A stretch of 64,000 bases of DNA from an uncultured delta proteobacterium (GTDB lineage Bacteria > Desulfobacterota > BSN033 > UBA1163): NCBI GenBank assembly GCA_963708295.1, contig CAVPSJ010000011.1, forward strand, positions 224,001 to 288,000. The letters run 5' to 3'. This document shows, piece after piece, positions 551-48,862 of the stretch. The number at the start of each line of letters is the position of its first letter. Position 1 is the stretch's first letter. The notes beneath the pieces were generated by a model that saw nothing but the letters and a program-made list of their open reading frames with translations, searched no databases and was not told the origin of the DNA. Position numbers and translations under genes: made by a program.

Positions 551-624
551 CGCCCCTGGCCTGACTCGAACAGGCGACCTGCGGATTAGGAATCCGTCGC
601 TCTATCCACCTGAGCTACAGGGGC
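551..624 (-). tRNA. tRNA-Arg(CCT), CCA end not encoded
   Basis: Reverse complement GCCCCTGTAGCTCAGGTGGATAGAGCGACGGATTCCTAATCCGCAGGTCGCCTGTTCGAGTCAGGCCAGGGGCG: 7-bp acceptor stem, D arm, TTCCTAA anticodon loop, GTTCGA T loop. Confidence 0.96.
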
Positions 625-4795: not shown

Positions 4796-5662
4796 TTCGT
4801 ACCCCTTCTCGGTGAGTACGTCGACGACGGCAGAAGCCATATCCCGCATCAAAAGCTCCCAAATAGAAAATCTTTTCTTCGGGGGATAAAGGACGTTCGG
4901 TTTCCCTTCGATTCCCACCATCTTGGCAGTGATATCGATCGTATCCTGAAGGTTTCCCAGTTGATCGACCAGCCCCAGATTCTTAGCCTGTTCCCCTGTT
5001 AAGATTCGACCATCTGCGATCTGAGCGACTTTCGATCGATCCAGTTTCCTCCCATCCGCCACGGCCTGGATGAATTGCTGATGAACATTGTCGAGCACTT
5101 CCTGCATGATCCTCTTCTCCTCCGGAGTCATCTCCCGGAAAGGGGATCCGATATCTTTATGCTCTCCGCTTTTGAGCACCACTCCCTTGATTCCAATTTT
5201 CTTAAGAAGTTCTTCAAAATTTGAGAATTGCATGATCACGCCGATGGAACCGGTAATCGTCCCGGGATTGGCAACGATGAGATCAGAGGCACTCGCGATA
5301 TAATAGCCCCCCGAAGCCGCCACAGACCCCATGGAGGTAACCACTTTTCTCTTCGAGGTTGACTTGATCCTCATAATCTCACGGTAGATCTCCTGCGACG
5401 GGCCCACGCCTCCCCCCGGAGAATCAACCCTCAAAATGATAGCTTTGACCCCATCATCGGCGAGATATTGCTGGAGCTCTTCGATCACCCCGGAGGATTG
5501 GATGATCGCTCCCTTCACTTCCACAATGGCAATCTTATCGCCGAAGGCAAATCGGCTGCTTTTCCTCCCGGAATAGTGCCCTATAAAAAAAAGAATGACA
5601 AAAAAGAAAATGAGAAGTGCGGCAATGACACCCAACCCGATTAATATTCGTCTTCGCTTCAT
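4769..5662 (-). CDS. sppA: Signal peptide peptidase SppA (S49)
   Basis: RVDSPGG, AASGGYY and TGSIGV motifs; N-terminal TM. Confidence 0.93.
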   Translation of the reverse strand: MKRRRILIGLGVIAALLIFFFVILFFIGHYSGRKSSRFAFGDKIAIVEVKGAIIQSSGVIEELQQYLADDGVKAIILRVDSPGGGVGPSQEIYREIMRIKSTSKRKVVTSMGSVAASGGYYIASASDLIVANPGTITGSIGVIMQFSNFEELLKKIGIKGVVLKSGEHKDIGSPFREMTPEEKRIMQEVLDNVHQQFIQAVADGRKLDRSKVAQIADGRILTGEQAKNLGLVDQLGNLQDTIDITAKMVGIEGKPNVLYPPKKRFSIWELLMRDMASAVVDVLTEKGYELNFPIQIK

Positions 5663-5682
5663 GGGTCCCCTCCATGTATATC

Positions 5683-5872
5683 AAGTTACTGAGTTATTAG
5701 GTTATTAAGTTATTTGGTCATTGACTCACAAAACATCGCAAATCGCATAAAAAGATCCTAAAACCCGTTTATCATGTTTTAACCTTAAGATCAATAACCC
5801 AATGACTTAATGGCTTAATTATTTAATTACTCTATTACTCAATACCTTAAATTACTTTTATGACTCAATGAC
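5683..5872. repeat. Inverted pair of degenerate 8-bp tandem repeat tracts
   Basis: Left arm of GAGTTATT-like units, right arm of AATGACTC/AATTACTC-like (complementary) units. Confidence 0.65.
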
Positions 5873-5873
5873 T

Positions 5874-6614
5874 TCAAACGGGTGAAATGCGAATCGTCTC
5901 AAAGGCAGCCAGCTGGAAGATGCGGATGCGCTTCATCTTAACAAGTTCGAGAATGGCCAGCAACGTCACGACGACGAGCCTTCGAGAAGCCTCCTCCGGA
6001 AAGAGACGATGAAAAGCGATGCTTCGATTCTCCTTCTCAAGAACCGCTAATATTTCAAGAATCTTGGCCTCAACGCTGATGTGTTCCAAGACGACTTCAT
6101 GAACGGTTTCCGGTTTTACTTTCTTCAATACCTCCCGGAAGGCTTCGAGAAGCTCAAAAAGGTTCACCTCAATTCTCTCCTCCTCAGGCTCCTCTTCCGC
6201 CTCCGCAGGTGTCAGTCGGATGAAAACATCTCGCTCCAATAAAGGCATTTTCTCCATTTCGAGCGCTGCATTCTTGTATTTTTGGTACTCCAGAAGCCTT
6301 CGTACCAGCTCCGCTCTGGGATCCTCCTCTTCCTCCTCCTCCACCACTGAGGATTTGGGAAGTAACATTCTCGATTTGATGTGAAGAAGAGTGGACGCCA
6401 TCAAAAGGTACTCGCCGGCAACATCCAAATTGAGAACCTTCATCAGATGGAGATATTCCAAATACTGTTCTGTGACGAGGGAGATGGGAATATTGAAGAT
6501 ATCTAATTCGTTCTTCTGAATGAGGTGGAGCAGCAAGTCAAGGGGCCCCTCAAACCCCTCCAATCGGAAGGTATACTCTGATCTCTCCTCTGAACGCGAA
6601 TCCTCTGCAACCAT
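5874..6614 (-). CDS. scpA: Segregation and condensation protein A
   Basis: FEGPLDLLLHLI and EYLLMASTLLHIKSRMLLP motifs. Confidence 0.95.
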   Translation of the reverse strand: MVAEDSRSEERSEYTFRLEGFEGPLDLLLHLIQKNELDIFNIPISLVTEQYLEYLHLMKVLNLDVAGEYLLMASTLLHIKSRMLLPKSSVVEEEEEEDPRAELVRRLLEYQKYKNAALEMEKMPLLERDVFIRLTPAEAEEEPEEERIEVNLFELLEAFREVLKKVKPETVHEVVLEHISVEAKILEILAVLEKENRSIAFHRLFPEEASRRLVVVTLLAILELVKMKRIRIFQLAAFETIRISPV

Positions 6615-9256
6615 TATTCTATCCCCTGGGCCTTTGTGATATACTCCATTTCATCTTGTCGGGTGATCACGCGCTCATCCAATCTGGCATCGAGCAATCC
6701 CGACAAGACCTTTTTGATGGAGGGCCCTGATTTTATTCCCATCTGAATCAAATCTTTTCCTTTCAGGATGGATTTTGTATCTTTTAGTTGTGTGAAATAT
6801 AGGGAAATATACCGCCGGGTCGTCACCTGGCTGGTCTTGGCCATCATAAAGAGCTTTGATTCAACGGAAAGAGGGTCAAGAACACCGTAGATCTCCGACC
6901 GCTTTGGCCGTCGGTCCGTATTGATCCAAGAGTAGATCTGAAGGAGAACCTGGTCCGCATGAAGCTTCCCCTCTCTTACCCTCTTTCTGAGCCGATCATT
7001 CATAGCCAATCTTTGGCAGAGCCCCTCTCTTTCCTCCTCTTTGATGAAGTCCATGAGACCATAAAAATAGATCAGCCAACGCTCATATCGCTGCTCGAGG
7101 AAAAGAAGGTCAAACCAAGCGATGACATGATGGATCTGCTCACAAAGCGCCTCGGCCTGGTCATCAAATTGAAGGCTGGAATGGAGGAAATGGAAAAGAT
7201 TGAAATCCCTCATCCGTTTCAGGGCAGGAAGAGGATCTTCTTCCTGAAGGATCAATATGAGCTCCGAAAGAACGCGCCCCCCTGAGAGACGTTCCAAAAA
7301 ACCCACCTTGACCGCATTCTTCATCAGATTCTGGGTATGTTTTCCGATTTGAAATCCGAACCGTTGTTCAAACCGGATCGCCCGAAAGACCCGGGTAGGA
7401 TCTTCGACAAACGAGAGATTATGCAACACGCGGATCGTTTTTTCTTTGACATCTTTGACCCCTCCAAAAAAATCGATCAGTTCCCCAAACGCCTTTGGAT
7501 TGAGCTGGATCGCCAGGGCATTCACGGTAAAATCCCTCCGATAAAGGTCCATCTTGATCGAAGCGCTTTCCACCGTCGGGAGGGCTGCGGGAGACTCGTA
7601 AACCTCCCAGCGAGCCGTCGCAACATCCACTTTCAACCCATCGGGGAAGAGAATGATGGCCGTTCCAAATTTCCGATGTGTCCGAATCCGGCACGGGAAT
7701 TTCTTTTCGAATTCCTCGGCAAAACGGATCCCGTCTCCCTCCACCACGATATCCACATCGAAATTCTCTTCCCTCAACAAAAGATCCCTGACAAACCCAC
7801 CGACCGCATAGACAGCATATCCCAACCCATCCCCCACCCTTCCAAACTCCATCAGCAGGTTGTGGATTCGTTCGGGGAAACGCTCTTTCATCAATTTGGA
7901 AATCACCTTTTTCCGGCCATACAGAGGCAAGCTTTCAAAAAAAGAATCCCCTTTCTCCGATTTCATCATCTCCGTTTGAAGGACCCGCATCACATCCCTT
8001 GGAGAAATCGCCCCGACCAATCGATCCCTTTCGACGACCGGGAGGAGGCTCTGGTTTTGTCCGATGATGAGGGCCTGGACTCTCGAAAAAGGAGTTTCCG
8101 GGGAGACCACCGAAAATTCCGTTGTCATATATTCCTTCACCAAGGCGCTCTTGAGGCCATGATATTCCGCTCTCTCGACGACTTCTTTCGATATCAGCCC
8201 GATCACTTTCTCATGCTGAAGGACGGGGAGAATGTCCAGGTTATAACGGGTAAGTACCTCTCCGGCTTCCTCTAGAGTTCGCTCCGGCTCGATGGTCTTC
8301 ACCGGATAGACCATCGCATCCGATGCCACCTTCTTGGGCTTCACCATTTCGTTTAACATCTTGACCAATCGATCATGGGCCTCTACCAGTGCCACTCCTT
8401 TCACCGTTGCTGAGGCTGCGGTGGGATGTCCTCCCCCTCCAAATTCCGCGGCCACCTCTGAAACGTTCACCTCTTGCAATCGGCTCCTTCCAATCAAATA
8501 AACCCGGTCTTCCATCCTGACCAAGACGAACAGGACGTCCAGGTTCTCCATATCTTTCAGTTTATGGACCAGGACGGCAATATCTCCCACATACCGATCC
8601 ACGGAAGCCTGAGCGATCACCACATCGATCCCGTGAAAGCTGTATCGCGTGGCGGATTGGATTAGATCATTCAGCAGGAAGATTTGTTCTGCCGTGAGTT
8701 CCTTGGTGATTACATTCGAGAGGATGTTGAGATTTGCCCCCTTTCGAACCAAGTACCCAGCCGCTTTGAAATCTTCTTCCTTGGTTGAAGAAAAGGTCAG
8801 GTTCCCTGTATCTTCATAAATCCCCAGCATCATCAAGGTAGCTTCATCGGGTGTAATCTCAACCCCCCGCTTCTCAAGAATTCCTAAAAGGAGCGTCACC
8901 GTCGCCCCTACCTCGGAAATCACCTCCAGCGACCCATGGAGATCCTCAGGAGAAGGAGGATGGTGGTCATAGATGTGAACTTCTAAATCGGGTCTGGACA
9001 GAAGCTCTGCAAATTTTCCAATGCGACTGATCTGCCGAGTATCTACCAGGATGAGTCGTCTGACTTCCTGGAGATCGATATTCTTGATCCGCTCCGCCTC
9101 GAAAGAATAAAGGGTGGAGTGGATGAAGAAATCACGAAGACTTCTCTCTTGAGAACCCGGAAAGACCAAAACCGCACCGGGATAGAGTCTCTTCGCAGCC
9201 AGCATGGAGGCCATAGAATCAAAATCGGCGTTAATATGAGTGGTGATGACGTCCAT
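6614..9256 (-). CDS. DHH-CBS-PolyA_pol multidomain tRNA nucleotidyltransferase (A-adding type)
   Basis: THINADFD, DHH, GGGH, CBS pair, VGGFVRD, DLYRRDFT and EDPTR motifs. Confidence 0.9.
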   Translation of the reverse strand: MDVITTHINADFDSMASMLAAKRLYPGAVLVFPGSQERSLRDFFIHSTLYSFEAERIKNIDLQEVRRLILVDTRQISRIGKFAELLSRPDLEVHIYDHHPPSPEDLHGSLEVISEVGATVTLLLGILEKRGVEITPDEATLMMLGIYEDTGNLTFSSTKEEDFKAAGYLVRKGANLNILSNVITKELTAEQIFLLNDLIQSATRYSFHGIDVVIAQASVDRYVGDIAVLVHKLKDMENLDVLFVLVRMEDRVYLIGRSRLQEVNVSEVAAEFGGGGHPTAASATVKGVALVEAHDRLVKMLNEMVKPKKVASDAMVYPVKTIEPERTLEEAGEVLTRYNLDILPVLQHEKVIGLISKEVVERAEYHGLKSALVKEYMTTEFSVVSPETPFSRVQALIIGQNQSLLPVVERDRLVGAISPRDVMRVLQTEMMKSEKGDSFFESLPLYGRKKVISKLMKERFPERIHNLLMEFGRVGDGLGYAVYAVGGFVRDLLLREENFDVDIVVEGDGIRFAEEFEKKFPCRIRTHRKFGTAIILFPDGLKVDVATARWEVYESPAALPTVESASIKMDLYRRDFTVNALAIQLNPKAFGELIDFFGGVKDVKEKTIRVLHNLSFVEDPTRVFRAIRFEQRFGFQIGKHTQNLMKNAVKVGFLERLSGGRVLSELILILQEEDPLPALKRMRDFNLFHFLHSSLQFDDQAEALCEQIHHVIAWFDLLFLEQRYERWLIYFYGLMDFIKEEEREGLCQRLAMNDRLRKRVREGKLHADQVLLQIYSWINTDRRPKRSEIYGVLDPLSVESKLFMMAKTSQVTTRRYISLYFTQLKDTKSILKGKDLIQMGIKSGPSIKKVLSGLLDARLDERVITRQDEMEYITKAQGIE

Positions 9257-9273
9257 AACTTTTAGGAAAAAGG

Positions 9274-9406
9274 GAAGAATGGAATGATGGAGTATTGGAA
9301 GATTGGGTTCCTCATAAACAAACTGATGTTTTGTCTTTTATCACTCCATTATCCTGGGTATCTCTTCCCCATTGCTCCAGTATTCCAGTACTCCAATATT
9401 CCAGCA
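9274..9406. repeat. Inverted 8-bp tandem repeat tracts (GGAATGAT / TATTCCAG type)
   Basis: ggaatgatggagtattggaagattgg ... attgctccagtattccagtactccaatattccag. Confidence 0.65.
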
Positions 9407-9407
9407 A

Positions 9408-10295
9408 TTACCCTCTCGGGTGATAGCGCTTGTGGACTTGTTTTAGTCTCTCTCCGGTCACATGGGTATAGATCTGGGTCGTAGAGATATCCACATGGCC
9501 CAGCATCATCTGAACCGATCGAAGGTCCGCCCCCCCTTCCAGAAGATGACTGGCAAAGGAGTGGCGAAGAAGGTGCGGGGTAATCCTTTTATGAAGACCC
9601 GCTCTTTGGGCATAATTCTTAAGACTCTTCCAGAAACGCTGCCGGCTCATCCCTTTTCCCGAGCGGTTGATAAAAAGGATCGGACTGTCCTTCCCCTTTG
9701 AAAGGACTCCGCGACCAGCCTTTAGGTAGAGCGCAACCCATTTCATGGCTTCGCTTCCGAGTGGAACGATCCTTTCCTTTGAACCCTTTCCATAAAGAAG
9801 GACGTATCCTCCCTCCAGGCTGACCTGATGAGTCGGGAGGTGGGTCAGCTCGGAAACCCTCATCCCGGTGGCATAAAGCATTTCCAGCATCGCCCGGTCT
9901 CTCACTCCGAGAGGGGTCTGAACATCGGGTTGCTCCAATATCCGTTCAATCTCCTTCAGGCTCAAGATCTCCGGCAATGTTCTCGCGACCTTCGGAGATT
10001 CTAAATTCTCCAGAGGATTGGCTTCTAGTATTCCTTCTTGAATCAAGAAACGAAAAAAACTCCGGACGGCCGACAGATTTCTCACGATGCTTTTTGCCCC
10101 CAGTTTCTTCTTTTTGAGGGCCAGGAGAAAACCCTGAACGTCAAATTTGCCAACCTCCCGGATGTCCCGAATCCCTTTTCCCCTCAAGTGATCGAAGAAC
10201 CGAGTCAATCCGTGTCCGTAGGCCTCAATCGTATTTTGGGAAAGGCCCTTCTCAACGACGAGATAATGAAGAAACTGATCCAAGTATTGGTCCAT
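9408..10295 (-). CDS. xerD: Site-specific tyrosine recombinase XerD
   Basis: LYATGMRVSEL, GKGSKER and PHLLRHSFASHLLEGGADLRSVQMMLGH...TTQIY. Confidence 0.95.
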   Translation of the reverse strand: MDQYLDQFLHYLVVEKGLSQNTIEAYGHGLTRFFDHLRGKGIRDIREVGKFDVQGFLLALKKKKLGAKSIVRNLSAVRSFFRFLIQEGILEANPLENLESPKVARTLPEILSLKEIERILEQPDVQTPLGVRDRAMLEMLYATGMRVSELTHLPTHQVSLEGGYVLLYGKGSKERIVPLGSEAMKWVALYLKAGRGVLSKGKDSPILFINRSGKGMSRQRFWKSLKNYAQRAGLHKRITPHLLRHSFASHLLEGGADLRSVQMMLGHVDISTTQIYTHVTGERLKQVHKRYHPRG

Positions 10296-10351
10296 GATGA
10301 TTCTTTAATCATGAAAGGAAAACAAATGGAAAATCAATAAATGCTGTTATA

Positions 10352-10457
10352 CCGTCATCGCTTGTCATTGCAAGCGATCCCGCCTTAGCGGGAGAGCGCG
10401 GCAATCTTAATTTTGAAACGTTGAGATTCGCTTCGTGGCTTCGCGCCTCGCAATGAC
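10352..10457. repeat. GTCATTGC...GCAATGAC palindromic intergenic repeat
   Basis: tgtcattgcaag ... ctcgcaatgaca terminal inverted repeat with an internal tcccgc-ctta-gcggga hairpin. Confidence 0.7.
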
Positions 10458-10546
10458 ACTTCGATTACTGTGTTCTTACCAAATAAAAAGCAGAGGTGAC
10501 CGTTGCCTCTGCTTTGCCGAAGAAAGCCATGGGTTGGAGTCTCTCC

Positions 10547-10987
10547 TCAGATTCCGGTGTGACCAAATCCCCCTCCTTGCCTCTGGGTCGCCGGGAGATC
10601 GTCTACCTCTTCCAACGTTGTTCGGAAAATTTGGGAGATGACCATCTGTGCGATCCTTTCCCCGTTATGGATGGTGAGGGGCTCCCTTCCGAAATTGATC
10701 AAGAGGACACCAATCTCTCCGCGATAATCGGAATCGATCGTCCCCGGTCCGTTCACAATTCCAATCCCCTTCTGAACGGCCAACCCGCTGCGAGGTCTGA
10801 CTTGCCCCTCGAACCCTACCGGTATCGCTACCGCGATTCCGGTAGGAATGAGTCTTCTCTCTCCCGGTTCCAAGATCACCTCTTTCTCCAAAGAGGCGAA
10901 AAGGTCCATTCCGGAGGACCCTTCCGTCATATACTGAGGCAGGGGCACAGGACGATCTTTCCTCAACCGTTTGACGAATATTTTCAT
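10547..10987 (-). CDS. dut: dUTP diphosphatase
   Basis: GMDL, RPRSGLA, GTIDSDYRGEI and RQGGGFGHTG motifs. Confidence 0.95.
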   Translation of the reverse strand: MKIFVKRLRKDRPVPLPQYMTEGSSGMDLFASLEKEVILEPGERRLIPTGIAVAIPVGFEGQVRPRSGLAVQKGIGIVNGPGTIDSDYRGEIGVLLINFGREPLTIHNGERIAQMVISQIFRTTLEEVDDLPATQRQGGGFGHTGI

Positions 10988-11018
10988 CTTCGCCCTTCGC
11001 CCGCATCGCATTGACTTC

Positions 11019-12341
11019 TCACTTTCCCACCAGGCGAATCTTGTCCAAATAGTTTCCGTTCATCGGACCCAAAACGGTTAAACAAAATAATCGTTCATCA
11101 AAAATCTCATTGGCTAACTGGCGAACAGTTTCTTCCGTCACCTCGTCAATCCCCTTGAGGATCGTTTCCACCCGGAGGTAGGATTGGAAGTAGATCTCGT
11201 TCTTTGCCAGACGGGTCATCAAACTATCCGAACTCTCCATACTGAGGAGAAGATTTCCTTTCAGTTGCTCTTTTGCGGTTTGCAGCTCTCCGTTTTTCAA
11301 AGGTCCCTTCTTGATGTGGTTAAACTCGTTGATGACCAATTCGATGACCTCCTGAAAAGAGCCCTCGTTGGTTCCCGCATAAACGACCACCAGTCCCGAA
11401 TCGATGTAAGTCGGAAGATAGGAGTAGACGGAATAAGCCAACCCACGGTTTTCACGGATCTCCTGGAAGAGTCTTGAACTCATCCCCCCTCCCAGGATGG
11501 TGTTCAAAACATACGAAGCGAATCGAAGGGAATGGTTATACTGGAGCCCCCGGGTACCGAGACAAAAGTGAACTTGCTCTAAGTCCCGTTTCCGAACATT
11601 GGTCGTGGAGATCGGATCCGGTTTCCTCCTTCCCGTGGCTTTGTCCGATCTCGGAATCTTACCGAACGTCATCTCGATCATGTCGACCACCTGCTGGTGT
11701 TCCAAATTTCCAGCCGCGCAGACGACGATTCGGCCGGGTGGGTAGTTCTCCTTAAAGAATTGGTGAAGCTGATCTGGGCGGAACGATTGAACCAGCTCGG
11801 AAGTACCATAAATCGGAAAACCGAGCGGGTGGTCTCCCCAGCAAGCCCGGTTGAAAAGATCATGGATGTAATCGTCAGGAGTATCCTCTACCATTTTGAT
11901 TTCCTGAAGGATGACCATCCTCTCCTTCTCCACGTCTTTTAGATCCATAAGAGAATGAAGAAAAATATCGGAAAGCAGATCAACCGCCAGGGGCAAATTC
12001 TGATCGATCACTTTGGCATAAAAACAAGTGTACTCCCTTCCTGTAAAGGCGTTCAGGGTTCCACCCACAGAGTCAATTTCCTTCGCGATGTCAAAGGCTG
12101 TCCTTTTCTCCGTCCCTTTGAAAAGAAGGTGCTCGATAAAATGAGAAATGCCATTTTCATAGGGTTGCTCATCTCTGGATCCGGTGACCACCCACACTCC
12201 GATGGAAACCGAACGAAGGTACGGAATTTTCTCTGTAATCACACGGAGCCCATTATCGAGGACGGTCTTTTGATACCCGGATCCGCTTTCTGCCAAAAAT
12301 GGATTCATGGAATCGTGCATTTTCTTAGTTTTTGTTTCCAT
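11019..12341 (-). CDS. M16 (pitrilysin) family Zn peptidase
   Basis: HFIEH inverted zincin motif, NAFT, SSRLFQEIRE. Confidence 0.92.
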   Translation of the reverse strand: METKTKKMHDSMNPFLAESGSGYQKTVLDNGLRVITEKIPYLRSVSIGVWVVTGSRDEQPYENGISHFIEHLLFKGTEKRTAFDIAKEIDSVGGTLNAFTGREYTCFYAKVIDQNLPLAVDLLSDIFLHSLMDLKDVEKERMVILQEIKMVEDTPDDYIHDLFNRACWGDHPLGFPIYGTSELVQSFRPDQLHQFFKENYPPGRIVVCAAGNLEHQQVVDMIEMTFGKIPRSDKATGRRKPDPISTTNVRKRDLEQVHFCLGTRGLQYNHSLRFASYVLNTILGGGMSSRLFQEIRENRGLAYSVYSYLPTYIDSGLVVVYAGTNEGSFQEVIELVINEFNHIKKGPLKNGELQTAKEQLKGNLLLSMESSDSLMTRLAKNEIYFQSYLRVETILKGIDEVTEETVRQLANEIFDERLFCLTVLGPMNGNYLDKIRLVGK

Positions 12342-46108: not shown

Positions 46109-46329
46109 GGTTATTTTCCGATTCCTCTTGAAGTCTTACCAGCAAGAATGTTGAATACGGAAGAGACACCCTGCTTCACCGTTTCGCCATGTTTCCGCCT
46201 GATTTCTGGTTAACGATGTCATTCATTACCCTGTCAATCTCCCTTCATCACTCTCAAAGTATGAAGCGGAGGCCCAGGCAGTAGGGAATACCGCTTTTCG
46301 GTAGCGAACCTAGAGCCTCCCTTCAATGT

Positions 46330-46981: not shown

Positions 46982-47632
46982 TTATCTTCCGGTCCTTGTT
47001 TTCGCCACATCCCAGCAGTAGTCATAAATATGGAGTCCCTTGCTGGAGGCAATGATCTCACCGTCCTCTACCCCAATCTCCTTCGCCATATATTCCTTAA
47101 GGAGTTGAAGGCCGGCCAGATTGGATGGAAATCCCGCCCATAAATCCCACGAACGGAAGTAGAGCATGAAATGGAGTTTTCCATTACGAATGCGCGTATC
47201 CACGCCGCGGAGGCATTGGGGGTCCTGGAGTAAAATTGAACCGGCGTTGCCGACCGCCATGTACGCCTGATTGGTATTGAGTCCTTCTTCCCGATACATC
47301 CGGATGACTTCGTCGATCTGTTTTTCAAGATCCTCCCCATAGGTGTAGGTTTCGTGGACATCTTTTCTCGATGTGATCAACTTCTCAAGATATTGTTCCA
47401 CGTATTCCATCGAGGTGGGAGGGGGAACATTGCAACCCGGAGGGATGTCCGGGATGAGCGGTCTTGTACCGGGGTGGGTGATGTGGACGACGATATAGTC
47501 ATATTCCAACCTCTTCTGGCCTTTGAAACTTCCCCGGTCGATGGTATATTCATAGCCCTTGTCAAAAAGGTTGTAAACACATTGAAACCATGCGTCTGGC
47601 AAATCCCTTGCCCGAATGAACTCGATCTTCAT
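46982..47632 (-). CDS. thyA: Thymidylate synthase, short archaeal-type ThyA
   Basis: YTYG, PQCL catalytic Cys, FRSWDL, N.AGL and HIY motifs; only 216 aa. Confidence 0.85.
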   Translation of the reverse strand: MKIEFIRARDLPDAWFQCVYNLFDKGYEYTIDRGSFKGQKRLEYDYIVVHITHPGTRPLIPDIPPGCNVPPPTSMEYVEQYLEKLITSRKDVHETYTYGEDLEKQIDEVIRMYREEGLNTNQAYMAVGNAGSILLQDPQCLRGVDTRIRNGKLHFMLYFRSWDLWAGFPSNLAGLQLLKEYMAKEIGVEDGEIIASSKGLHIYDYCWDVAKTRTGR

Positions 47633-47710
47633 CGTTCCCTCTGCGGTCAGTAGATTTTATTTAACGGCTTCTATTAACCCACCTCCCCTGAAGTTGTCAA
47701 CCCGTATGCT

Positions 47711-48028
47711 TTCCCCTTTGAGACGGTGTCGCAATCATAATGAAAAGTAGATATAGGCCGGACAGGCACACAGGCTCCTTAGCTTTAGAATGCGGTCTTG
47801 TAGAATGGGTAATCGAGCTTCTTGCAAGTGCAATCTCTTCATGGGATTGCGGCCCGGTAGCTGACCGATAAAGGGTTTCCGCCCTAAAGCTTCGGAACCT
47901 GGCTGCCTGTCCGGCTTTACGACGGAAGTGGTTTTCCGTGAGTTGTGACACAATCTCTTTGGGGGAGGAAAAGGGTAGTGGTGGCTATCTACTTTTGATT
48001 TTGAACAACAGGTGGCACAAAAGGGGAA
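47711..48028. ncRNA. Candidate large structured non-coding RNA B (unassigned)
   Basis: Nested long-range helices including perfect 9, 11, 12 and 8 bp stems. Confidence 0.6.
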
Positions 48029-48052
48029 TGACGCTTCACTTAATCGGGTATA

Positions 48053-48862
48053 CTACTGATGACGCCAGAAATGATAAAGATAGAGCTGTGCATAGCCTGC
48101 ATAAGGGCCAAAATGATTGGATACAAATTCCTCCATCGCCCTCTCTCCAGTTTTCTTCCGATTAAAATAAGTCTTTTGTAATCCCTTTTTAATCCACGTA
48201 TCCATCGGAAAGGCTTCAAGGAAATCCAACGAATAAAGAAGCGTACAATCCGCAACCTTTTTCCCTACTCCGGAAAGGCTCATTAACCGTTCTCTCGCCT
48301 CCTTGTAGGATAAATCTCTAAGCGAAAGGAGAGCGCTCCTGTCTATGCATTGGCTCGCCTTGACTAAATATTTTGTCCTAAACCCGGCCTTGACCGGTTC
48401 CAATTGGAGAGGGGTTTCCATACAACGGGGCTCTGGAAATCCGTAACCCACATGGTTTCCCCAAGAGATCTTTTTCCCAGAAGATTTGCAAAGGACCTCG
48501 ATCATGGAGCGTATCTGGGAAATGGCTTTGGCCGACGAGCACAGGAAAGAGATCAGACACTCCCATGGATCCTGCCGGATCATTCTTAACCCTCGATATT
48601 TCTCGATGGCCTCGTGAACGACCGGGTCCCGATCGATCTCTTTGTAGACGAAATCCAAGTCTTCATCCAACCTAAAAAAGCGGATCACAAAAGACTCTTC
48701 GACTCCATCATAGAAGAGGAATTCCCCGGCTTGACGGATGGAAAACATTCTATCCGAGGATTGAATCATGTAGGTATCGAGGGCCTTGGTAAATCGAAAG
48801 AATTGTCCGCATTCCAGGGTATGCTGAAGAGAAAAGAAGGGGATTCGAAGTCGGGAGGTCAT
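48053..48862 (-). CDS. ogg: 8-oxoguanine DNA glycosylase (OGG_N + HhH-GPD)
   Basis: LECGQFFR, QDPWECLISF, GVGKKVADC and AGYAQLYL motifs. Confidence 0.9.
   Translation of the reverse strand: MTSRLRIPFFSLQHTLECGQFFRFTKALDTYMIQSSDRMFSIRQAGEFLFYDGVEESFVIRFFRLDEDLDFVYKEIDRDPVVHEAIEKYRGLRMIRQDPWECLISFLCSSAKAISQIRSMIEVLCKSSGKKISWGNHVGYGFPEPRCMETPLQLEPVKAGFRTKYLVKASQCIDRSALLSLRDLSYKEARERLMSLSGVGKKVADCTLLYSLDFLEAFPMDTWIKKGLQKTYFNRKKTGERAMEEFVSNHFGPYAGYAQLYLYHFWRHQ

Follow-up and report, generated by a model that had tools for sequence, protein, structure and literature searches.

A probable MITE family with a shared, covarying core in an uncultured Thermodesulfobacteriota lineage

The DNA under study is a stretch of 64,000 nt (hereafter the window) from an uncultured delta proteobacterium, in which the spacer between a thymidylate-synthase-like gene (thyA) and an 8-oxoguanine DNA glycosylase gene (ogg) holds a region of nested long-range helices at positions 47711-48028. 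Within this region, positions 47720-47957 were very probably a non-autonomous DNA transposon, namely a transposable element of the miniature inverted-repeat type (MITE), which belongs to an intergenic family of one uncultured Thermodesulfobacteriota lineage. The assignment was based on the inverted repeats at both termini, on a duplication of 3 bp at the target and on sites that stand empty in relatives. The original prediction, made from the letters alone, had offered two readings of the region. The structured mobile element proved right in kind, as the inverted repeats, the duplication and the empty sites indicated, while the stand-alone large non-coding RNA failed on the many dispersed copies, the very finding that the prediction itself had named against it. 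A role at the RNA level for the conserved core of the element was much less certain than the MITE assignment.

Ends, target site and copies of the element

Based on family alignments, similarity among 32 copies and their flanks started at a 16-nt motif, GAGACTGTGTCGCAAT, and stopped at its reverse complement, giving a unit of 238 bp from inverted repeat to inverted repeat (47720-47957, + strand; start at C11:271720, C11 being the contig of the window). The left terminal inverted repeat of the window copy (47720-47735, + strand, C11:271720) began with GAGAC and had one mismatch to the consensus, and the right one (47942-47957, + strand, C11:271942) had three and paired with the left repeat in the + strand fold. 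Over 26 copies, this terminal helix (helix 1) was 81.6% paired. Both ends, with no more than 4 mismatches each, were located in 69 copies, 25 of them in the source genome and 44 at fetched loci, 4 of the latter being duplicates of others. An exact 3-bp direct repeat abutted both ends in 39 of the 69 copies, or in 36 of 65 without the duplicates. Shifts of 1-5 bases gave 0-6 matches, and shuffled partners gave 2.9 on average and 10 at most in 1000 trials. An inverted repeat could have been part of the palindrome, but this one is direct and is therefore a target-site duplication. In the window copy, the two copies of this duplication were TTT at 47717-47719 and TTT at 47958-47960, both on the + strand.

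Outside the duplication lay a C/T-rich run on the left (47708-47716, + strand, flank GCTTTCCCC followed by TTT) and a G/A-rich run on the right (47961-47969, + strand, TTT followed by flank GGGGGAGGA), the two halves of the target hairpin, and C/T-rich...G/A-rich flanks of this kind surrounded most copies. For the copy at C17:171717, the corresponding site was queried in five relatives. The fifth had no flank match, and in all four with both flanking genes adjacent the genes were separated by a spacer of 33-107 nt without the element. The empty site of genome G008 displayed a bare small hairpin, consisting of a C/T-rich arm, about 3 nt and a G/A-rich arm; therefore, both runs around the element are parts of its target. 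A second copy tested, at C4:611054 (locus L199), was uninformative on the empty site, with the left flank alone conserved in 5 of 5 relatives. That copy was also the second case, besides the window copy, of an element at a break in gene order.

Altogether 265 distinct perfect target-like hairpins with stems of at least 8 bp were present in the source genome. The small C/T...G/A hairpins were often clustered, for example at C1:111554 and C4:348775, and a link between them and genes of the REP-associated tyrosine transposase (RAYT) type, REP denoting repetitive extragenic palindromic sequences, was looked for and none was found. At loci L201, L202 and L204 (genomes G003, G004 and G010), which are orthologous to C17:171717, the same hairpin held a different insert of about 75-80 nt, which suggested that other elements use the same target hairpin.

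The family displayed inverted repeats, a duplication of fixed length, a small size without a transposase gene, many copies, and filled as well as empty sites; for the GAGAC class, the remaining mark of a MITE, an autonomous insertion sequence (IS) with the same ends, was not found in the partial search made. Deletion derivatives without the centre and with differing junctions occurred, and some copies retained the ends alone, around unrelated DNA. Only open reading frames (ORFs) of 43-84 aa overlapped the element, and the two that were scanned had no Pfam match. The inverted ends and the 3-bp duplication form a footprint of the cut-and-paste type, and the insertions lie at the 3 nt between the arms of small C/T-rich...G/A-rich hairpins. 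In the transposition to which these features point, a DDE transposase supplied in trans would bind both ends, cut the target with a 3-bp stagger and paste the element in. The whole element folds as a long irregular hairpin with the conserved module of about 130 nt at its centre.

A BLAST search of the source genome gave 39 matches, the best other copy being 82% identical. With iterated nhmmer, 78 places were detected at E up to 1e-3, 32 of which covered at least 220 profile positions and were near full length, and one strand always scored far better than the other (e.g., 220 vs 140 bits). The profile of the central part alone found 55 places, 44 of them near full. The window contained a single copy.

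In BLAST searches of further genomes, the element turned up in 16 of the 24 that share its GTDB family, compared with 0 of 16 outside this family. Covariance model R1 revealed it in 53 of the 55 genomes of the order, which contains only this family, and in all 21 genera, with 5 to at least 50 matches per genome, whereas in two sister families it was present in none of the 8 and none of the 5 genomes searched. When species-representative genomes were scanned by pattern, at least 110 stretches were returned, nearly all on contigs of metagenome-assembled genomes (MAGs) labelled Thermodesulfobacteriota, Deltaproteobacteria, Syntrophaceae or Syntrophorhabdus, the exceptions being one short contig each in an Acidobacteria bin and an Anaerolineales bin. 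No match to the element was found by blastn among the public plasmids of PLSDB, and the pattern search of IMG/VR viral contigs gave 0 matches. The element was not met in the published literature when searched by lineage with the MITE term and by a 12-nt core motif, supplements lying outside this scope. No protein gene recurred as a neighbor, since the largest similarity cluster among 348 ORFs around about 150 places had 6 members.

These data bear directly on the reading of the stretch as the gene of a stand-alone large non-coding RNA specific to the ogg-thyA spacer. Such a gene would agree with the strong fold (z -5.1) and with the lack of a coding signal, Pfam giving nothing in the overlapping ORFs scanned, but the 78 places in the source genome, the absence of the element beside thyA and ogg in relatives, the target duplication, and the contigs that skip the stretch (see below) leave it scarcely credible.

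The central module, its fold and its strand

The centre was the best-conserved part of the element across 26 aligned copies of the source genome, an alignment from which 6 of the 32 copies were left out for their large inserts. In the window copy, the conserved central module, comprising helices P4 to P7 and a variable branched tip, extended from 47752 to 47918 on the + strand (core profile match, 2.7e-31), and 47781-47891 was the most conserved part. Its order is helix P5, which varies in sequence and is always paired; an internal loop of about UUCCAA vs YUCUCCA; helix P6, formed by AGCUUUAG with CUAAAGCU; a 3-by-1 loop, AAU vs Y; and helix P7, formed by GCGG with CCGC, or by GCGCA with UGCGC in one subfamily. 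Conserved unpaired nucleotides adjoin covarying helices. The centre was likewise the best-conserved part in a set of 99 distinct core stretches (21 from the source genome and 78 from other genomes), in which the anchor motifs are invariant by construction because the stretches were picked by a motif expression.

The original prediction had called for homologs with compensatory changes, and these were found: in the copies of the source genome, RNAalifold revealed them at 17 of 25 predicted pairs. When a hand-written structure was placed on the 99 sequences, 82.2% of the cells were paired, compared to 69.0% after shuffling (0 of 500 shuffles as high), and the covariation score was 0.331 vs 0.132, while slid partners reached at most 58.8% paired and a score of 0.235. 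The 26 copies of the source genome, with the terminal helix included, were 88.2% paired vs 81.8% in shuffles (0 of 500) and at most 51% in slides, and 25 pairs had changed on both sides compared with 13.1 expected (0 of 500). Relatedness alone can beat the shuffles; the slid controls keep the relatedness and scored much lower. A common fold of the tip could not be derived, as RNAalifold run per cluster was inconsistent between clusters, and the automatic consensus used for model R1 retained 9 pairs only.

The pairings that the original prediction had named within 47711-48028 were all present in the sequence. A repeat finder recovered arms at 47711-47719 and 48020-48028 (9 nt, 100% complementary), at 47735-47753 and 47986-48004 (19 nt, 89%), and at 47757-47788 and 47884-47915 (32 nt, 84%). 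The RNAfold energy was -138.5 kcal/mol (z -5.09) for the + strand and -118.0 kcal/mol (z -5.11) for the - strand, and on neither strand was any of 100 shuffles as stable, so that a structure far beyond chance, with z about -5.1 on both strands, was borne out. The pairing of the 5' arm with 47943-47970, which had been put forward as an alternative conformation, was present and was the one used by the minimum-energy fold of the + strand; because both partners are the terminal inverted repeats, it is common to the whole family. The outermost helices, reaching 47986-48028, are real but peculiar to the window copy and no feature of the family. As for the small inner hairpins, GCAATC/GATTGC and ACGGAA/TTCCGT were seen in the fold, whereas CGGT/ACCG was disfavored, since a comparison of subfamilies by eye favored a stem of ATCG-AGCT with AGCT...CGAT. 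The boundaries 47711-48028 held up only in part, as they take in, besides the transposable unit proper (47720-47957), the target hairpin and a copy-specific tail.

That no known RNA class fits was likewise upheld. No covariance model of Rfam 15 matched the element, neither at the gathering score nor at E up to 10, and 16 further copies (E up to 1) and 8 loci of other end classes (E up to 0.1) likewise lacked a match.

The + strand, towards which the earlier reading had leaned, was mildly favored. When 80 full copies were folded on both strands, the + strand was the stabler in 48 and the - strand in 32, with a mean difference of 2.2 kcal/mol (Wilcoxon p 0.044). G-U pairs made up 877 of 7139 pairs on the + strand vs 570 of 6648 on the - strand. 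The + strand is 53% G+T, a composition that by itself favors G-U pairs, and G-U and A-C cells in the RNAalifold pair table were about equal (about 30 each, hand count); therefore, the strand signal from pairs is weak. The orientation relative to genes was more pronounced. The element was co-directional with both neighbors at 17 of 25 places in the source genome and at 36 of 42 external loci, 53 of 67 in total (binomial 1.8e-6), counted with crude ORF calls and only at places whose two neighbors share one direction. This test overstates the bias because some loci are orthologous between genomes. Local GC skew was also followed, in 26 of 40 copies of the source genome, so that replication direction is inseparable from transcription. 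The window copy, antisense to both thyA and ogg, has the minority orientation.

On the transcript side, one contig of an RNA library covered 47973-48138 with 11 differences in 166 bases. It would fit read-through from ogg but gives no strand and is no proof of transcription, and the library may contain DNA. X20, the only RNA run (share 0.05), has contigs of 85-95% likeness and is uninformative on strand, start or level. A promoter and terminator scan of the window copy gave 0 and 0 sites.

The module of about 130 nt could be a functional structured RNA with several MITE families as its carriers, whether it binds proteins, serves in processing or even cleaves itself; its function as RNA would then account for the conservation, and the MITE would be no more than a vehicle. 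This reading is compatible with the MITE assignment, though rather unlikely in our judgment. It would account for the recurrence of the module in elements that differ in their ends, of which there are at least three kinds (see below), for the conserved unpaired nucleotides beside covarying helices, for the orientation bias of 53 in 67, and for the mildly better folding of the + strand and its more numerous G-U pairs; the RNA-library contig at 47973-48138, which extends from the 3' end of ogg into the right end of the element, is a weak hint in the same direction. Set against it are the absence of any Rfam family in the searches above, the lack of promoter-like or terminator-like sites at the window copy, the equal G-U and A-C cells, and a poorly conserved interior without a common RNAalifold fold across clusters, and the contig, strand-less and from a library that may hold DNA, says little for it. 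It is also rather unlikely that the module as delimited here (P5, the UUCCAA/YUCUCCA loop, P6, the AAU/Y loop, P7 and the branched tip) is a new structured-RNA class, captured or kept by at least three unrelated MITE chassis in one order for what its sense transcript does; candidate actions of its sense transcript would be protein binding, RNA processing or stabilization, and self-cleavage. Within the MITE reading itself, the module might, more tentatively than the transposition steps, be selected in its single-stranded form. The most likely form would be read-through RNA from neighboring genes in the sense orientation, where the module would act as a stabilizing or processing hairpin in the manner of REP and ERIC-type repeats.

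Other carriers of the module, IS110 insertions and the transposase

The module was not confined to elements with GAGAC ends. At about 30 of 76 external-locus places, the centre alone matched the profile, and both arms and ends differed. One class, termed GTAAC, has ends GTAACACTTTAGCGC... and is flanked by direct repeats of about 8 bp, and of 10 copies, 3 had an exact 8-mer and 1 an exact 7-mer, the others agreeing at 5-7 of 8 positions. A second class of core-bearing MITE has the ends (CTSAG)AAGGTGTGAAAAAAT, further arm types exist, and all classes measured about 225-245 bp. At least three kinds of MITE, with unlike ends and duplication lengths, therefore carry one shared module. At loci L124 and L129, in different MAGs, GTAAC-class elements occupied what by eye seemed the same spacer, between a pgk-like end and a tpiA-like start, and the duplicated target consisted of the stop codon and ribosome-binding-like bases. 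The same pattern of element ends with the same spacing was observed at C9 (about 8426-12009) and C10 (about 5642-9203), and these small contigs may be two assemblies of one region.

For the AAGGTGTG class, an autonomous partner was found, namely an IS of the IS1182 family. At locus L215 of genome G008 (about 488-2480), a 2.0-kb IS bounded by AAGGTGTGAAAAAAT-type ends encodes a transposase of 446 aa with a score of 379 bits for the IS1182 family model, the cut-off of which is 270. Its ends of 15-17 nt equal those of the core-bearing class (100% over 17 nt and 93% over 16 nt); in contrast, it carries no core module (nhmmer, E up to 10), and the window copy has ends unrelated to these. In the source genome, 62 ends of this IS1182-like class were counted, with four short pairs without the core. 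For the other two classes, going by the ISfinder tables, a 3-bp duplication next to 'GAG' ends would point to the IS1031 group of IS5, and an 8-bp duplication next to 'GTAA' ends to the IS66 family, but no transposase gene with matching ends was found for either in the searches made.

The core itself is the target of another transposon. Two IS110 elements of 1.6 kb, 99.75% identical over 1605 bp, were located at C4:169661-171265 and C4:318882-320486 (loci L021, L032 and L033). They encode a 356-aa RNA-guided transposase (PF01548 and PF02371; 195.8 bits against NF033542), and both are inserted between ...CTTTAGA and AATGCGG... of a MITE core, one host being a typical MITE copy and the other a very diverged core. 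IS110 thus uses the core motif as its insertion target, two insertions in total having been seen. The bridge RNA is expected in the non-coding DNA (about 250 nt) located upstream of the transposase gene. REP sequences are an established landing site of IS110-family elements (PMC1525189, PMC11208160, PMC11187229). The REP and bacterial interspersed mosaic element (BIME) targets of IS621, ISPpu9 and ISPpu10, as described in these sources and in bioRxiv 10.1101/2025.01.17.633520, are likewise conserved, multi-copy intergenic palindromes that serve as a safe harbor. The difference is that a REP of 20-40 nt is hit there, whereas here it is the core of a 238-bp MITE.

The source genome also has eight Y1_Tnp genes above the Pfam cut-off. 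Seven paralogous genes of 316-338 aa with an N-terminal Y1_Tnp domain each lie in a unit of about 1.1 kb (loci L025-L031; C4:1008279, C5:149866, C6:70974, C16:103315, C20:73782, C14:290302 and C12:89690), and several of these units are bounded by 18-nt inverted repeats of their own, GGGGACGTTGGTTCTAAA and its complement. Neither the MITE nor the small hairpins flank any of the Y1 genes, which are unrelated to the element.

These genes raise the question of whether the element is REP/REPIN-like and was moved through single-stranded DNA by an HUH (Y1, RAYT-like) transposase instead of a DDE enzyme. The hairpin form of the whole element, the eight Y1_Tnp genes, and the 26 of 40 copies that follow GC skew, as expected if the lagging-strand template were used, are all in keeping with such a route, as is the typical targeting of REPs by IS110 elements (PMC1525189, PMC11208160). 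The 3-bp duplication and the 16-nt inverted repeats are nevertheless marks of DDE transposition, the Y1 genes carry their own 18-nt inverted repeats and lack the element and the hairpins as flanks, and 238 bp with a branched centre is unlike REPs of 20-40 nt, so that this route was judged very unlikely. Elements of the IS200/IS605 type are not known to produce a target duplication. The marks of a REP/REPIN family with a RAYT, namely short palindromes or doublets of 20-40 nt, a flanked Y1 (RAYT) gene and no target duplication, were absent, given the 238-bp size, the 3-bp duplication and the unflanked Y1 genes.

Several observations weigh against the account of the element as a DDE-mobilized MITE with a module selected as RNA. 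No autonomous IS with GAGAC ends was found in the source genome, at 30 PF01609 loci (five relatives) or at 8 NF033580 loci, a partial search for the partner. MAGs often lose IS copies. The copies within the genome are old, the nearest being 82% identical to the window copy, and no more than 39 of 69 copies (36 of 65 without duplicate loci) have an exact 3-bp repeat. A simple insertion does not account for the tail at 47970-48052 of the window copy. The RNA strand signal is weak (48 of 80 copies, p 0.044, on a + strand rich in G+T), local GC skew is followed in 26 of 40 copies of the source genome, and the orientation bias rests on crude ORF calls and non-independent loci.

The window copy, its neighbors and the significance of the family

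The two genes beside the window copy are both on the - strand. The thyA gene (46982-47632) encodes 216 aa and matched Pfam PF00303 (4.9e-10) and, below the cut-off, NCBIfam TIGR03283 (1.5e-26); its upstream region abuts the insertion, and homology with relatives of the genus runs to about 47701. The ogg gene (48053-48862) encodes 269 aa and matched PF07934 (9e-19) and, below the cut-off, TIGR00588 (7e-47); its stop codon abuts the insertion, and homology on this side stops at about 48057. The two genes were never found together in 14 other genomes of the genus, and at 8 thyA loci and 5 ogg loci of the genus, with flanks of 1.5 kb, both the element and the partner gene were absent, which also means that the position of the element is not conserved. 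In four relatives, the region upstream of thyA (about 165 nt) contained an 80-nt stretch 100% identical to C11:71236-71316 of the source genome, probably a tRNA gene. This stretch lies 200 kb from thyA in the source genome; therefore, the neighborhood of thyA has been rearranged. Two matches to Rfam at the gathering score lay elsewhere in the window, a tRNA at 551-624 (- strand) and an int-alpA RNA with 42.9 bits at 46252-46320 (- strand), at a distance of about 1.4 kb from the element.

Contigs of two DNA runs skipped the stretch 47703-48052, with joints at 85% likeness, and thereby linked the DNA upstream of thyA to the stop codon of ogg. One contig of run X2 joined 47702 to 48053 (side 64) and one of run X4 joined 47702 to 48057 (side 30), possibly with other letters between in either case, and the contigs represent related organisms, not necessarily the source organism. 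None of the sequencing runs contains half of the words of the stretch or more, and the uncovered parts are uninformative. Judging by the joints, there may be an allele that lacks the 350-nt stretch and has thyA next to ogg, and 47703-48052 is possibly the whole insertion unit at this site.

Between the right target half and ogg, the window copy has a specific tail (47970-48052, + strand), in which part of the left arm recurs in inverted form at 47986-48004 and another G/A-rich run lies at 48020-48028. That the tail and the element are related follows from their exact inverted match of 11 nt, as only about 0.005 such matches are expected between a 238-nt element and an 80-nt flank. It is outside the family consensus, and a similar tail was present at the copy at C20:91368.

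The hairpin-forming MITEs or MITE-like repeats nearest to the element are Correia/NEMIS of Neisseria, ERIC/IRU of enterobacteria and RUP of Streptococcus pneumoniae. These repeats, like the element described here, are small, non-coding, intergenic and multi-copy, with inverted-repeat ends and a long hairpin, and they have deletion variants of fixed kinds and are often co-transcribed with their neighbors. The present element differs from them in its end sequences, in a 3-bp duplication that falls in the loop of a separate hairpin family, in a covarying branched core common to elements with unrelated ends, and in its confinement to one family and order of uncultured Thermodesulfobacteriota. It represents a new MITE family, which the shared covarying core and the orientation bias make more than routine.

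For annotation, these results mean that a candidate 'large structured RNA' is a transposon copy, and the same call applies to several thousand loci of the lineage. They also reveal a selfish nesting of three levels, in which a REP-like hairpin is the target of a MITE and the core of this MITE is the target of an RNA-guided IS110. That MITEs with unrelated ends and unlike duplication lengths share one conserved, covarying module would be difficult to understand if it brought no benefit to the elements or the host. Like this sharing and the nesting, the strong orientation bias relative to genes sets the family apart from an ordinary MITE. Should the module act at the RNA level, transposons would have spread a regulatory or processing element throughout a lineage that has no cultured model.

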